From an uncultured virus (IMG/VR IMGVR_UViG_3300032225_002272) (lineage: Duplodnaviria; Heunggongvirae; Uroviricota; Caudoviricetes), in IMG/VR virus record IMGVR_UViG_3300032225_002272: DNA of 64,000 nucleotides; one strand, 5' to 3'. The notes beneath the pieces were generated by a model, which ran no database searches, was not told the origin of the DNA, and was given only the letters and a program-made list of their open reading frames with translations. Shown in pieces: positions 60,470-64,000 of this stretch. Position numbers and translations under genes: made by a program. Positions within the stretch are counted from its first letter, which is position 1; the number at the start of each line of letters is the position of its first letter.

Positions 60470-60578
60470 ACAATATATATTCACAAATATAATACTTATT
60501 TTACAATATAGGAAATTTAAATTCATGAAACATCATGATATCCTTTATAAACATTATAATTATTATTAGTATAATTGT

Positions 60579-60962
60579 ATGGAACAAAAGAAAAGACCTG
60601 ATAGCTTTGTAGAAAACAGATTATCTAAGAGATATCCAACGGAAATTGGCGCACCAAAATTTGAACCTGATAATATTTCTCTTTTTAAAATTGAAAAAAC
60701 TTCTAAAATAAAAAAATACTATTCTTCAAGATTTGAAGAGATGACTAAAGAGTATGAAAAGTTAATGTCAGAAATTCAAATGAATGAAAGACTTTATACG
60801 GCTTCACACAACTTTGAACCAATCTCTGGCGAAACTTACCACTTATATAAAAAGGAATCCGGTCAAGAATTTCTTTCTTTAATATCTCCGGAACAATGGG
60901 CAAAATTTGATTTCATCGGATCTTATAGATTCTTATCAGACGGTAGATGGGAGGCTATTTAA
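60579..60962 (+). CDS. DUF2452-like protein
   Basis: YPTEIGAPKF, FEPISGETYHLY, FLSLISPEQW. Confidence 0.7.
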   Translation: MEQKKRPDSFVENRLSKRYPTEIGAPKFEPDNISLFKIEKTSKIKKYYSSRFEEMTKEYEKLMSEIQMNERLYTASHNFEPISGETYHLYKKESGQEFLSLISPEQWAKFDFIGSYRFLSDGRWEAI

Positions 60963-62563
60963 CCTACCCACCCTTCTTTCAAACTTACAGTCTTATTGAA
61001 ACTTTTACCGTCAGTGTCTAAAATATAATACCCTTTTCTCATCATTTGAACTGGTGCCTTGACTTTTAAAACATGAGGTTCAAAGATTGCCTTATCATTA
61101 ATTATAAGTGAATCTGGGTTGATATAATTGATAAAATCATCTTCATTTTTATCAGGTGATTCATCATTGAATAATCTATCATATTCATTTACATTCATTC
61201 TAACTCCGTGTTCAGCAGATACCCAGTGAATGGTTCCTTTAATCTTTCTTTCAATAAACATACCTGATCTTGTTAAAGGATCGTAAGTACATCTAATCTC
61301 AATGATTTCTCCGAATTCATCTTTGATAACTTCATTAGCCATAATAACATAAGCACCTTTTAATCTTACTTCACCACCTAATTTCAATCTATGAAATTTA
61401 TTATTAGCTTCTTCTCTAAAATCTTCTCTTTCAATAAATAATTCTCCATTAAAAGGAATCATTCTAGTACCAGCACTTTCATCACCAGGATTATTTTCAA
61501 CTTCAACCATTTCAGTTCCGTTATCCCAATTAGTAATAACTAACTTAACTGGATCCATGACACCCATTAATCTGTTGGTAACTATATTCAAATCAGTTCT
61601 TAAACATTCTTCTAAAAGTAAATAAGAAACAACCGATTCTTTTCTGGTAACAGAAATTCTATCACAAAAATCTTTAATAGCATTTGGTGTAAAACCTCTT
61701 CTTCTTAAACCGGAAATAGTAGGCATTCTTGGATCATCCCAACCATCAACATAAGATTCTTCAACCAATCTTTTTAATTTTCTCTTTGACATAACTGTAT
61801 AGTCAATGTTCAAACGAGCAAACTCAGTTTCTTCTGGAAGTGGATTTTCTAAATCACAATTTTCTAATACCCACATATATAAAGGTCTATGAACTTCAAA
61901 TTCTAAAGTACATAAAGAATCAGTGATACCTTCTTTATAATCTGAAAGTGGATGAGCAAAGTCATACATTGGATAAATCTTCCAAGTATCACCAGCTCTG
62001 TGGTGTGACTTAGATATTATTCTATAAAGAACCGGATCTCTTAAAATCATATTAGGAGAAGTCATATCAATATTGGCTCTTAAAATTTTAGAACCTTCAG
62101 AGAATTCACCTAATCTCATTCTATTAAATAAGTCTAAGTTTTCTTCTATACTTCTAGATTTATAAGGTGAGTCTTTACCAACTGAAGTTGGAGTTCCTTT
62201 TAAGTTAGCAATTTCTTCACTGGTTGAATCATCAACATAAGCTAATCCTTTCTTAATTAAAGTAACAGCACAATCATAAAGAAAATCAAAATAATCAGAT
62301 GTATAGAAAATGTTGGCTGGTTTGTAACCTAACCATTCTATATCTTTTATAATTGATTCAACAAAGTGAGTATCTTCAGTAGTTGGATTTGTATCATCAA
62401 ATCTCAAGTTACAAGGTCTATTATATTTTTCAGCCAAGCCAAAATTTAGTATAATGGATTTAGCGTGACCCAGGTGTAGCAGACCATTGGGTTCAGGAGG
62501 AAATCTTAATGTTAGTTTATCAAGATTGTCTTTTTCTAATATTTTATCTTCAATGAAATTCAT
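60959..62563 (-). CDS. glnS: glutaminyl-tRNA synthetase
   Basis: RFPPEPNGLLHLGHAK, LRFDDTNP, IYPMYDFAH, CTLEF, MSKR, GWDDPRMPT, KGTIHWVS. Confidence 0.96.
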   Translation of the reverse strand: MNFIEDKILEKDNLDKLTLRFPPEPNGLLHLGHAKSIILNFGLAEKYNRPCNLRFDDTNPTTEDTHFVESIIKDIEWLGYKPANIFYTSDYFDFLYDCAVTLIKKGLAYVDDSTSEEIANLKGTPTSVGKDSPYKSRSIEENLDLFNRMRLGEFSEGSKILRANIDMTSPNMILRDPVLYRIISKSHHRAGDTWKIYPMYDFAHPLSDYKEGITDSLCTLEFEVHRPLYMWVLENCDLENPLPEETEFARLNIDYTVMSKRKLKRLVEESYVDGWDDPRMPTISGLRRRGFTPNAIKDFCDRISVTRKESVVSYLLLEECLRTDLNIVTNRLMGVMDPVKLVITNWDNGTEMVEVENNPGDESAGTRMIPFNGELFIEREDFREEANNKFHRLKLGGEVRLKGAYVIMANEVIKDEFGEIIEIRCTYDPLTRSGMFIERKIKGTIHWVSAEHGVRMNVNEYDRLFNDESPDKNEDDFINYINPDSLIINDKAIFEPHVLKVKAPVQMMRKGYYILDTDGKSFNKTVSLKEGWVG

Positions 62564-62581
62564 AATGTTTATATTTTTTAG

Positions 62582-62653
62582 TTGTCTCGCCAGGATTCGA
62601 ACCTGGACTCTTTCCGTTCAAAGCGGCTTGTGTTGCCCTTACACCACGAGACA
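62582..62653 (-). tRNA. tRNA-Gln(UUG), weak anticodon stem
   Basis: TGTCTCG/CGAGACA acceptor (U1-A72), loop CT-TTG-AA, GGTTCGAATCC. Confidence 0.8.
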
Positions 62654-62659
62654 TTGTTG

Positions 62660-62731
62660 TTGCTCCACTTGGACTCGAACCAAGCTCATCTGTTTCAAAG
62701 ACAGATATGATCACCCATATACTATGGAGCA
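62660..62731 (-). tRNA. tRNA-Gln(UUG)
   Basis: TGCTCCA/TGGAGCA acceptor, TCTGT-CTTTGAA-ACAGA, GGTTCGAGTCC. Confidence 0.92.
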
Positions 62732-62733
62732 AT

Positions 62734-62767
62734 AAAAAACCCGAATCAATTAGATTGATTCGGGTTT
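62734..62767 (-). terminator. attenuator terminator upstream of tRNA-Gln/glnS
   Basis: AAACCCGAATCAAT-CTA-ATTGATTCGGGTTTTTT, ending 2 nt before tRNA-Gln. Confidence 0.85.
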
Positions 62768-62795
62768 GTAAAGTTTAGACAATACGATACCATTA

Positions 62796-62846
62796 TCAAT
62801 CTGTTGGATTAATTTGTTGTTGTTGGTATTGTGATGTTGTTCTCAT
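62796..62846 (-). CDS. Gln-rich attenuator leader peptide
   Basis: MRTTSQYQQQQINPTD*; five CAA codons. Confidence 0.8.
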   Translation of the reverse strand: MRTTSQYQQQQINPTD

Positions 62847-62874
62847 AGTTCTATTTATATATTTTGTTTCCTTG

Positions 62875-62952
62875 TCGAGATGGCAGGATTCGAACCTGCG
62901 AAATTCTCCTGCTCCCAAAGCAGGCGGGGTGACCTGGCTCCCCAACATCTCG
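62875..62952 (-). tRNA. tRNA-Pro(UGG)
   Basis: CGAGATG/CATCTCG with A73, CCTGC-TTTGGGA-GCAGG, GGTTCGAATCC. Confidence 0.92.
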
Positions 62953-62961
62953 TTATTTTAG

Positions 62962-63034
62962 CGGTCCATACCGGATTCGAACCGGTACCACACACCGTGA
63001 CAGGGTGGTATTGTAACCATTCAACCAATGGACC
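62962..63034 (-). tRNA. tRNA-Asp(GUC)
   Basis: GGTCCAT/ATGGACC with G73, loop CT-GTC-AC, GGTTCGAATCC. Confidence 0.9.
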
Positions 63035-63096
63035 ATTTTGAGAATTCTTTTACTCTATTCTCTAAAGAGTATCTTTCGCTCCAAAGCTACTTTTTG

Positions 63097-63170
63097 TCGG
63101 GAAGGTCGGAATCGAACCGACTAACTGAAGCCTCCAGAGCCCCCGTGCTTAAAACCTTAGTCACTTCCCG
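63097..63170 (-). tRNA. atypical tRNA-Pro(UGG)-like gene
   Basis: CGGGAAG/CTTCCCG with A73 (C1:G72), GGGGC-TCTGGAG-GCTTC (C33), GGTTCGATTCC. Confidence 0.65.
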
Positions 63171-63185
63171 GTTTTAATATAAAAC

Positions 63186-63218
63186 AAAAAACCCAGTTAA
63201 TCTTTCGACTAACTGGGT
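63186..63218 (-). terminator. attenuator terminator upstream of tRNA-Pro/Asp/Pro
   Basis: ACCCAGTTAGTC-GAAA-GATTAACTGGGT-TTTTT. Confidence 0.85.
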
Positions 63219-63242
63219 AATGTTTCATAGTTAATATTTTCT

Positions 63243-63341
63243 TTAACTTAAAACCACATAGTTAGCCTCTTTCGAACCAGGATCCTGATCGATTACAACT
63301 TGCGGTTGCGGGTTAACGATATTTAAGTTTAAGTTTTTCAT
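63243..63341 (-). CDS. Pro/Gln/Asp-containing leader peptide
   Basis: MKNLNLNIVNPQPQVVIDQDPGSKEANYVVLS*. Confidence 0.65.
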   Translation of the reverse strand: MKNLNLNIVNPQPQVVIDQDPGSKEANYVVLS

Positions 63342-63346
63342 TTCTT

Positions 63347-63419
63347 TATATATTAAAAAGTTTTTCTTCCTTTTGTTCTTATTTTATACAAATATACAAC
63401 AAAGTTTTAATTTGTCAAA
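63347..63419 (-). promoter_or_regulatory. tandem promoters for the tRNA operon: TTTG-N19-TATATTTG and TAATATATA
   Basis: caaa 63416-63419, caaatata 63389-63396, tatatatta 63347-63355; a further TTTG-N20-TATCTTTG at 63460-63491. Confidence 0.7.
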
Positions 63420-63478
63420 TATTTTTTTAATTTATTTTATTTTTTCTCTTTTGTGACTACAAAGATATGTAGTTTATT

Positions 63479-63853
63479 TTAGATTGCCAAATTTTCTTTT
63501 GATTTATAATCTAAAATTTCAATGTTAAAAGCCGATGATAGTTTATGACCTAATTCATCAACTATAGCAAATATTTCTTTTTCATTATAAACAGTAATAT
63601 TAAAGTGGACAACAGCATCTATTTCAACAGCACCATCTGCTAATTCAGCAACAGTTCCTTCTTCAAGAATGTTAACTTCAATAGATTCAGGGTTATAAAC
63701 CAACTCACTAACTTTAGATAATCCTAAGTTTATTTTATCTTCTGTGATGTCTTCACCTTTACATAGAATATCTATGTTATAAGATTCTTTTGGGGCAGAA
63801 TATCTGAATCCTACGGTTCTTTGATATTCATTTATTGATTTTAAATGCTTCAT
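63479..63853 (-). CDS. hypothetical protein with capsid-targeting-like tag
   Basis: MKHLKSINEY; TAATATATA (minus) at 63858-63866. Confidence 0.7.
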   Translation of the reverse strand: MKHLKSINEYQRTVGFRYSAPKESYNIDILCKGEDITEDKINLGLSKVSELVYNPESIEVNILEEGTVAELADGAVEIDAVVHFNITVYNEKEIFAIVDELGHKLSSAFNIEILDYKSKENLAI

Positions 63854-63879
63854 ATATTATATATTAATTTTTACAAACA

Positions 63880-63907
63880 AAAAAACCCTCAGATAAATCT
63901 AAGGGTT
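63880..63907 (-). terminator. intrinsic terminator
   Basis: AACCCTTAGAT-TT-ATCTGAGGGTTTTTTT on the minus strand. Confidence 0.7.
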
Positions 63908-63929
63908 AATTAATTAGTGTTAAAATATA

Positions 63930-64000
63930 TTAAGCGTTAACTGATACGTTAACTGCGTTTAATCCTTTTTTACCTTCTGTTACTTCAAAGCTAACTGAAT
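63930..64000 (-). CDS. cold-shock protein (partial, C-terminus)
   Basis: SVSFEVTEGKKGLNAVNV CSD tail. Confidence 0.8.
   Translation of the reverse strand, partial: SVSFEVTEGKKGLNAVNVSVNA

Follow-up and report, generated by a model that had tools for sequence, protein, structure and literature searches.

What decides whether a phage transcribes transfer RNA (tRNA) genes that lie behind an intrinsic terminator? The question is raised by a locus in a 64,000-nucleotide (nt) stretch of DNA from an uncultured virus of the Caudoviricetes (IMG/VR record IMGVR_UViG_3300032225_002272); we call this whole stretch the window. There, a leader open reading frame (ORF) of 32 codons, which holds the run CCG CAA CCG CAA GTT GTA ATC GAT CAG GAT CCT, is followed by a terminator and tRNA genes, and then by a second short ORF, a second terminator, two tRNA-Gln genes and a gene for glutaminyl-tRNA synthetase (GlnRS). 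We propose that the locus is a four-segment leader-peptide transcription attenuator with tRNA as its output, placed in series with a Gln attenuator, and on the strength of the sequence comparisons described below we give this reading a probability of roughly 75%. Translation of the leader ORF, stalling of the ribosome on it and conditional read-through would all be parts of such a switch, and the switch could sense how much tRNA is present, how far it is charged, or whether host tRNAs are damaged. The attenuator, tRNA and GlnRS features all lie on the minus strand of the window, and the parts on which the argument turns are as follows.

63491-63460, minus strand: upstream promoter-like site TTTG-N20-TATCTTTG, the first of a tandem pair (pattern match)
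63419-63389, minus strand: leader-proximal promoter-like site TTTG-N19-TATATTTG (pattern match), overlapping the sigma-70-like TTGACA-16-TATATT
63341-63243, minus strand: first leader ORF, 32 codons, ATG at 63341 to TAA at 63243, peptide MKNLNLNIVNPQPQVVIDQDPGSKEANYVVLS
63317-63311, minus strand: segment 1, GUUAACC (codons V9-N10-P11), which can pair with segment 2
63311-63300, minus strand: control codons CCG CAA CCG CAA (Pro Gln Pro Gln)
63306-63295, minus strand: alternative segment 1, ACCGCAAGUUGU, used in the minimum-free-energy (MFE) fold of the window's leader
63290-63279, minus strand: control codons GAT CAG GAT CCT (Asp Gln Asp Pro), ending 11 nt 5' of segment 2
63267-63260, minus strand: segment 2, GGCUAACU, common to the predicted 1:2 and 2:3 antiterminator helices
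63218-63191, minus strand: intrinsic terminator, 12-bp stem ACCCAGTTAGTC-GAAA-GATTAACTGGGT, then a T run at 63190-63181
63214-63207, minus strand: segment 3, AGUUAGUC, in the terminator 5' arm
63202-63191, minus strand: segment 4, in the terminator
63170-63095, minus strand: tRNA-like gene, Pro-like, starting 20 nt 3' of the terminator
63034-62961, minus strand: tRNA-Asp(GUC) (ARAGORN; Rfam, 60.3 bits)
62952-62874, minus strand: tRNA-Pro(UGG) (ARAGORN; Rfam, 54.2 bits)
62846-62796, minus strand: second leader ORF, MRTTSQYQQQQINPTD
62767-62737, minus strand: second terminator
62731-62581, minus strand: two tRNA-Gln(UUG) genes (ARAGORN, Rfam)
62563-60959, minus strand: GlnRS gene, 534 aa (Pfam PF00749, E=5.9e-97; PF03950; PF20974)

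How would these parts work together? We propose that transcription begins at a host-type promoter at about 63390-63490 and enters the leader ORF. When the Pro, Gln and Asp codons (63311-63279) are read at normal speed, segment 2 would be held inside the ribosome or re-paired with segment 1; with segment 2 unavailable, the 12-bp terminator would form and transcription would end at about 63186. When usable Pro-, Asp- or Gln-tRNA is short, the ribosome would stall, cover segment 1 and free segment 2, which would pair with the emerging 5' arm of the terminator. RNA polymerase would then read on through the tRNA-like gene, tRNA-Asp and tRNA-Pro and reach the Gln-codon attenuator that gates the two tRNA-Gln genes and GlnRS. 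The net result would be a codon-specific feedback on tRNA supply. The Gln codons in the first leader make sense in this scheme because the Gln genes lack a separate promoter motif and so depend on polymerase passing the first terminator.

A preliminary description of this DNA, made from its letters alone, had proposed a multi-amino-acid attenuator matched to the downstream tRNAs and in series with a Gln leader, and its structural elements are found where it placed them: the leader ORF at 63341-63243 with its run of codons, the GAAA-loop terminator, and an 8-bp helix with one G.U pair between GGCTAACT (63267-63260) and AGTTAGTC (63214-63207). The terminator hairpin has a predicted energy of -18.0 kcal/mol, and positions 60500-64000 contain five terminator-like sites, compared with 1.7 +/- 1.4 in shuffles.

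The proposal as a whole draws its support from relatives (labels such as L010 are ours). The tRNA stretch resembles two uncultured-phage GenBank megaphage records (634,780 and 642,428 bp), both of which share the architecture. A GlnRS-based scan of IMG/VR viral contigs yields nine loci on contigs of 55-519 kb, seven of them with both units; the contig of L005 ends 127 nt upstream of GlnRS. A similar scan of metagenomes yields 80 loci, among which the phage-type loci (69-94% identity) add five distinct leaders of class A, the class of the window's first leader: L030, L031, L033, L042 and L051. Three further loci are duplicates (L028 of L004, L032 of L031 and L041 of L011). In the resulting 14 distinct class-A leaders, all from huge-phage contigs, the frame, the Pro/Asp(/Gln) cluster and the pairing at the same codons are all kept. 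The homologues are 24-35 codons long, and the indels in their alignments are multiples of three. Of the 15 leaders that were compared, 11 share GAT CAG GAT. Within the 3' half of the ORF, conservation is highest in segment 2, even at third codon positions. The residues encoded between the control codons and segment 2 vary (GSKE, DTIG, MRK), while the N-terminus (MKNLNLNI / MKTINVNI) and the C-terminus are conserved.

Do the codons of the leader follow the identity of the tRNAs? Asp and Pro codons are present in each of the 14 class-A leaders, and tRNA-Asp and tRNA-Pro in each of the arrays behind them. L008 and L031 have tRNA-Gln directly behind the terminator; in L010, where the Gln unit is served by a separate promoter motif, the leader keeps a single Gln codon. 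The leader of L011 belongs to the family by its N-terminus (MKNVNTYTVN) and tail (CSFTS); it reads CTA AGA CAA TTA GTG TTA GAA CAA CTT ATA GAA, with no Asp codon; its array is Leu(UAA), Arg(UCU), Leu(CAA), Met, Glu(UUC), Ile(UAU), Leu(UAG), Glu, Glu(CUC), Leu(AAG). The records behind five of the loci hold 55, 68, 59, 41 and 1 tRNA matches, and 16 tRNA regions were examined. In four related genomes, a promoter motif, a short ORF written in the amino acids of the array's own tRNAs and a terminator stand before one array after another. For example:

Leader MLVVVAIVIKKKKKPW.. (KKKKK): five Lys tRNAs downstream
Leader ..HKHFSKSNKWFS.. (HKHFSKSNKWF): Phe, His, Trp and Lys tRNAs downstream
Leader ..ISRSRSSRS..: Ser and Arg tRNAs downstream
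Leader ..AYYYEGE..: Glu and Tyr tRNAs downstream
Leader ..AIIGGGAGA..: Gly and Ala tRNAs downstream
Leader ..IYIGYIAEGGYEAG..: Glu, Tyr, Gly, Ile(UAU) and Ala tRNAs downstream
Leader ..NLNMNMNLTVVLNTL..: Asn, Leu, Thr, Val, Ile and Met tRNAs downstream

For a quantitative comparison, 36 units were curated into 11 classes by the rule that an ATG ORF must end 10-60 nt before a terminator; where the frame runs back into a tRNA, the first ATG 3' of that tRNA was taken. When arrays are permuted among the 11 class representatives, no permutation out of 200,000 reaches the observed leader-array score of 25.1 (5.2 +/- 2.7 in permutations), and eight of the 11 leaders score highest with their cognate array. 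The match is confined to the frame of the ORF. In frame 0, 139 of 320 residues match the array (0/50,000 permutations); frame +1 gives 72 of 283 (13,972/50,000) and frame +2 gives 69 of 298 (41,623/50,000), neither of them significant. The preliminary description had named covariation of leader codons with tRNA identity in relatives as the test of its proposal, and the outcome is positive, in the shared Asp and Pro codons of class A, in the switch seen in L011 and in the permutations.

What is the predicted structural basis of the switch? The 206-nt leader RNA has a folding energy of -46.1 kcal/mol (z=-3.9), and none of 200 shuffles is as good. Its full fold contains the terminator together with a 1:2 helix in which ORF nt 36-47 (the PQ/VV codons) pair with nt 76-89 (segment 2). 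When the 3' arm of the terminator is omitted, the MFE fold pairs GGCUAACU with AGUUAGUC (z=-3.0). The predicted 1:2, 2:3 and 3:4 pairings correspond to the classical four-segment layout; the 1:2 helix, which was found by folding and goes beyond what had been claimed for this DNA, completes it. A ribosome whose A site holds Asp-20 or Pro-21 is taken, judging by footprint size, to cover about ORF nt 43-73. Such a ribosome would mask alternative segment 1 and leave segment 2 (nt 75-82) free. Folds of ten related leaders are similar: at full length the terminator is present in nine (L010 is the exception); without the 3' arm the 2:3 helix appears in nine (L003 gives 1:2); and with a ribosome mask at the last Asp or Pro codon it appears in all ten.

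The position of the 2:3 helix is conserved. The longest helix between leader and arm has 8-10 bp in the 14 class-A leaders; in every one of them it sits at homologous codons (xCT AAC T..), with 10-24 nt between its end and the stop codon. L011 has its longest contiguous helix elsewhere, and the homologous AGCUGGG pairing was found by a duplex-energy search. Both sides of the helix are given here for five leaders, and in L006, L031 and L042 the changes in segment 2 match those in the terminator arm.

Window: segment 2 GGCTAACT, segment 3 AGTTAGTC
L010: segment 2 TGACTAACTG, segment 3 CAGTTAGTCA
L031: segment 2 GGACTAACT, segment 3 GGTTAGTCC
L042: segment 2 TATGACTAAG, segment 3 TTTAGTCATA
L006: segment 2 TGCTGGCTG, segment 3 CAGTTAGCA

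Pairs were counted on the 11 leaders that can be aligned, with L006, L008, L030 and L011 left out, because MAFFT, run on the ten first-set leaders, misaligned L006, L008 and L011, whose terminators differ. On these 11 leaders the 2:3 helix is paired in 96.6% of 87 cells, compared with 11-42% when the partner is slid; for the terminator the paired share is 96.9%, and one of its pairs has changes on both sides. The 1:2 helix GUUAACC:GGCUAAC is paired in 81.8% of cells and has three pairs changed on both sides; its covariation score is reached by none of 500 shuffles, a comparison in which related sequences may beat shuffles without any structure. Strong 2:3 helices that covary with the arm are seen in other classes, for example (z -3.9 to -5.6):

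L014: 2:3 helix GAATCTGGGTT:AAACCCAGATT
L019: 2:3 helix CTCTGAGGG:CCCTCAGA
L025: 2:3 helix GTGAGGGTTT:AAACCCTCA

Similarly, the Gln unit of the window is predicted to have the same design as the first unit. Its full fold has z=-5.1, and with the 3' arm absent AGAUUGAU (62802-62795) pairs with AUCAAUCU (62759-62752; z -2.1 to -3.3), its segment 2, AGAUUGAU, overlapping the stop codon of the second leader. The run of Gln codons is kept in the second leaders of all ten first-set loci and of further metagenome loci. Within 400 nt upstream of 55 bacterial-type glnS loci (54-61% identity; L054-L107) there is no Gln-run ORF. These 55 loci hold 21 tRNAs and no matching unit of a terminator before a tRNA; the sole hairpin that our pipeline reports there, in L061, follows an ORF without a Lys codon, although the tRNA at that place is tRNA-Lys. 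Because the cellular-type glnS genes have no Gln-run leader, the Gln attenuator seems to be a property of the phage lineage and not to have been acquired with the gene.

How strong is the case from the window alone? Taken by itself, the window is weak to moderate evidence. Its leader contains three Pro, three Gln and two Asp control codons; CCG, used twice, is rare: the 58 long ORFs of the window have 516 Pro codons, of which 17 (3%) are CCG. Compared with random peptides of the window's composition, the best 11-residue stretch of the leader, with five Asp or Pro residues, has P=0.028, and with Gln included, eight residues, it has P=0.00015. When the relatives are included, the features of the locus are clearly more than chance.

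A number of observations weigh against the attenuator reading, and we gather them here. Over the whole leader ORF, Asp and Pro make up five of 31 residues where 3.3 are expected (p=0.24). A helix of 8 bp, G.U pairs allowed, arises in 166 of 1000 dinucleotide shuffles when the 89-nt 3' part of the leader is compared with the 17-nt arm plus loop; for relatives with helices of 9-10 bp the same test gives 22-44 of 1000. The energy of the 2:3 duplex in the window is no better than in shuffles (p=0.42), and none of nine class-A units reaches p<=0.05 in this comparison of the leader 3' part with the terminator 5' arm; nine of all 36 units do, mainly in classes with G+C-rich arms. Since the result is non-significant in all nine class-A units, we do not use duplex energy as evidence for the window. 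On the 11 alignable leaders the 2:3 helix has no pair changed on both sides; its changes are one-sided only, and shuffles do not discriminate. When the whole sequence is folded under the ribosome mask, the terminator is still the MFE fold in ten of ten leaders. Because the terminator is favoured even under the mask, antitermination would need to act kinetically, which is also the assumption made for classical attenuators. Likewise, the stop codon of the first leader lies 14 nt past segment 2, so that a terminating ribosome would barely cover segment 2, unlike in the trp leader.

The match between codons and tRNAs also has its gaps. The class-A leader ranks its own array third, after the Gln and the Asn/Leu/Thr/Val arrays. 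The array of L006 has a tRNA-Glu and its leader no Glu codon; that of L007 has a tRNA-Ser(GGA) and its leader a single, terminal Ser codon; conversely, the leader of L033 has Glu codons and its array no tRNA-Glu. The conserved N-terminal Asn, Leu, Ile and Val codons have no tRNA in the window's array. L009, a relative that bears GlnRS, has neither tRNA nor leader there, and its whole record holds only one tRNA match. Finally, a terminator is detected at most 150 nt upstream of only 27 of 48 tRNA clusters. Some of the 21 remaining clusters are single tRNAs (Met, Arg-UCU, Cys, Ser and a CUA anticodon), several with a promoter motif near upstream; others continue an array beyond a gap the size of an ORF. 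The unit of the window itself is counted among the 21 because its tRNA-like gene is not called. Another of them, L012:1904, has an imperfect hairpin that the scanner overlooked; there the tRNAs behind the leader MRTNTSHNHFNKSTFSNKS.. are those for Phe, Ser, Asn, His and Thr.

Could these data be explained without a readout of codon identity by tRNA? The leader and terminator might be a general sensor of translation status that answers to any slowdown of ribosomes or to a loss of coupling, in which the Pro, Gln and Asp codons are incidental or structural. The lack of Asp and Pro enrichment over its whole length (p=0.24) fits this idea, as does the fact that much of the leader consists of Asn, Leu, Val and Ile codons common to all leader classes; moreover, CCG and GAT CAG GAT lie inside predicted helices, so that their conservation could be structural. 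The match between leader and array is nonetheless specific and frame-dependent across the 11 classes in both permutation tests, and KKKKK before Lys tRNAs or QQQQ before Gln tRNAs is hard to explain if codon identity is not read, which makes a general sensor unlikely. Stalling could instead stem from the nascent peptide itself, or from slow formation of peptide bonds at Pro and Asp, which are poor substrates, so that the leader would report, for example, the activity of elongation factor P and not the supply of tRNA. Pro-containing motifs slow ribosomes; the Pro and Asp codons are clustered in PQPQ and DQDP; and leaders with Pro codons reportedly regulate mgt operons, one ORF of the mgtCBR leader being read out, it is said, through its Pro codons. 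We regard this as quite unlikely, given that the genes under control are precisely the tRNAs that read these codons and that sister leaders built in the same way follow their own tRNAs with Lys, Gln, Ser/Arg, Glu/Tyr or Gly/Ala codons, which argues for a common mechanism read out by tRNA.

Two other explanations dispense with the switch or with translation. If the ORF were an ordinary small-protein gene with its own terminator, the tRNAs would come from constitutive leakage or from a promoter of a kind not recognised here, and their match to the codons would be a coincidence. The termini of the leader are conserved, the window's own statistics are weak, and phage promoters unlike the motif searched for would be missed; yet the protein varies freely between the control codons and segment 2 while the third positions of segment 2 are conserved, the first tRNA-like gene begins only 20 nt behind the terminator, and a family-wide, frame-specific codon match argues against coincidence. 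We therefore hold a plain small gene to be very unlikely. Direct, T-box-like sensing of tRNA through RNA-RNA contacts, without translation, would lead to the same logical outcome, namely tRNA-related genes behind a terminator/antiterminator switch. It is highly improbable in view of an ORF conserved in frame, a codon match that is specific to that frame, and the absence from positions 60500-64000 of any T-box or other regulatory family at E<=10; nor is a structure resembling a specifier loop seen. All four explanations fit the family-wide codon match less well than a leader-peptide attenuator does.

Where would transcription of this attenuator start? The preliminary description had placed promoters at 63347-63419, and promoter-like sites are indeed present there. 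TTGACA-16-TATATT at 63418-63391 matches the sigma-70 consensus at 11 of 12 positions; as a class, sigma-70-like sites are not enriched in the region (20 found, 16.8 +/- 3.8 expected). The motif TTTG-N17-21-TAnnTTTG, which we take to be the Bacteroidetes-type promoter consensus, has 12 matches in the window compared with 4.4 +/- 2.1 in shuffles, and none of 100 shuffles reaches 12. It lies about 50-130 nt 5' of the leader ATG in eight of nine related leader-bearing loci; L008 has no match at that distance. An internal promoter just before the tRNAs had been named as an observation that would speak against the attenuator, and the search for this motif finds no full match between the leader and the tRNAs or onward to GlnRS. 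Just 5' of the promoter sites is a 124-aa ORF (63853-63479, minus strand) with no Pfam match, and a terminator-like hairpin at 63907-63884 closes the gene that precedes it.

What is the first gene behind the terminator? The preliminary description had listed a tRNA-Pro-like gene, tRNA-Asp, tRNA-Pro and the Gln unit; the last three are recovered by the prediction programs, and the first is more ambiguous. ARAGORN does not call it in the window; among its homologues, ARAGORN labels those in L001 and L002 tRNA-Pro(tgg) and misses others. Its sole reported Rfam match is to the transfer-messenger RNA (tmRNA) model at 19.6 bits, below the gathering score of 47. It has the loop UCUGGAG with C at position 33, which is near-universally U in tRNAs, and no canonical D stem; it also has C1-G72 and A73, which are traits of bacterial tRNA-Pro. 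Among 11 distinct homologues (found in L001, L002, L003, L004, L030, L039, L045 and L051), the acceptor, anticodon and T stems covary, and the anticodon loop is UCUGGAG, UCUGGAU or UCAGGAG. By these sequence features the gene appears to encode an unusual tRNA-like RNA that is Pro-like. The 60-nt spacer between it and tRNA-Asp (63094-63035, minus strand) contains a small hairpin, TACTCT..AGAGTA, followed by AAAAGAATTCTCAAAA; the spacer with its hairpin is nearly identical in the distant relative L001 (3025-3084), and the hairpin may be a processing signal. The leader ORF itself contains, at 63278-63271, GGTTCGAA, identical in letters to the T-loop motif of the neighbouring tRNAs. It occurs in the leaders of the window, L003 and L004 only and differs in L007 and the others, and is probably a matter of chance or a small local copy, not a conserved feature.

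How does the proposed attenuator compare with known systems? The thr leader contains Thr and Ile codons, and the ilvGMEDA leader Ile, Leu and Val codons. These leaders resemble the proposed one in having a short translated ORF with clustered control codons for several amino acids, a four-segment RNA, here predicted, and read-through on stalling, which here would follow from the proposed scheme. They differ from it in that the genes regulated here are tRNA genes and not biosynthetic enzymes, and the element is in a phage; here, too, the stop codon lies 14 nt past segment 2, control codons are few and the 2:3 helix is short, at 8 bp. Directly behind the first terminator are tRNAs, with no biosynthetic enzyme or synthetase; a synthetase, GlnRS, ends only the second unit. 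In Escherichia coli the pheM leader is the attenuator of pheST and controls phenylalanyl-tRNA synthetase. As a leader of one amino acid that gates the gene for decoding that amino acid, it is the closest analogue of the Gln unit; the difference is that here the tRNA genes themselves lie behind the terminator. T-boxes let the state of a specific tRNA switch a terminator/antiterminator before synthetase and related genes, but they bind the tRNA directly and need no ORF, whereas the signal here is frame-specific codons. Rfam gave no T-box match at E<=10 within 60500-64000, and none when the whole window was searched at the gathering score; only tRNAs reach threshold there. The Salmonella mgtCBR leader is reported to have two short ORFs in series that act on transcription (PMC3641672). 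The serial arrangement is alike; the mgtCBR ORFs regulate a virulence and Mg2+-transport operon, whereas here tRNA genes lie between the attenuators and each attenuator would gate its own cognate tRNAs. We also considered a tRNA-Phe attenuator in E. coli as a precedent and rejected it: pheV, the only gene examined, has no leader ORF or terminator between the upstream gene and the tRNA.

To our knowledge, bacterial tRNA genes are controlled at their promoters. In the full-text literature searched, with subscription journals and supplements outside its scope, we found no description of attenuators before tRNA genes or phage tRNA arrays, and the words 'attenuat', 'leader' and 'terminator' are absent from the main text of the paper that describes the huge phages. 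The general mechanism, in which a stalled ribosome leads to read-through, is well described (PMC1183508). The mechanism is thus classical, and the novelty is in the target, tRNA genes, and in the phage setting, not in the principle.

It is possible, if still doubtful, that huge phages of Bacteroidetes-type hosts have a genome-wide, codon-resolved feedback in which each array stands behind a test ORF written in its codons. If this is true, the phage would gauge the speed of decoding for each codon family and transcribe exactly those tRNAs that are short, together with the synthetase in the case of Gln. As two such sensors stand in series in the window, the Gln tRNAs and GlnRS would need two successive stalls. 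The shortage could come from host tRNAs that are depleted or cut by anticodon nucleases during infection. The attenuator reading, if right, would explain how phages with 40-70 tRNA genes avoid needless tRNA synthesis, and it would tie phage tRNA arrays to a measurable signal, the stalling of ribosomes at given codons, and the question of why phages carry tRNAs would become directly testable by reporter fusions. The family would offer a natural set of compact codon-specific sensors, to which the window contributes two attenuators in series, the second ending in GlnRS.

Finally, we note several observations on tRNA genes elsewhere. At 52861-52774 (minus strand) of the window ARAGORN calls a tRNA whose anticodon has four bases (cgta) and whose variable arm is long, and which Rfam does not report at the gathering score; it has a promoter-like motif of its own at 53002-52971 (minus strand), about 110 nt upstream, with no leader ORF or terminator between. 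In related genomes, several arrays are split by gaps of 500-1000 nt that resemble inserted ORFs (L011, 3486-4013; L015, 2089-2769; L017, 1812-2493; L019, 1567-2595), and the tRNAs after the gap still fit the leader before the array, for example the Lys tRNAs behind HKHFSKSNKWF. Single tRNAs with a CUA anticodon ('Pyl' according to ARAGORN), of the amber-suppressor type, are present at L013 1331-1403 and L026 1133-1205, in the records behind L006 and L007, respectively. Neither has an upstream leader ORF or terminator, and that of L026 has a TAnnTTTG-like motif close upstream. These CUA tRNAs hint at a reassignment of TAG in part of the clade.

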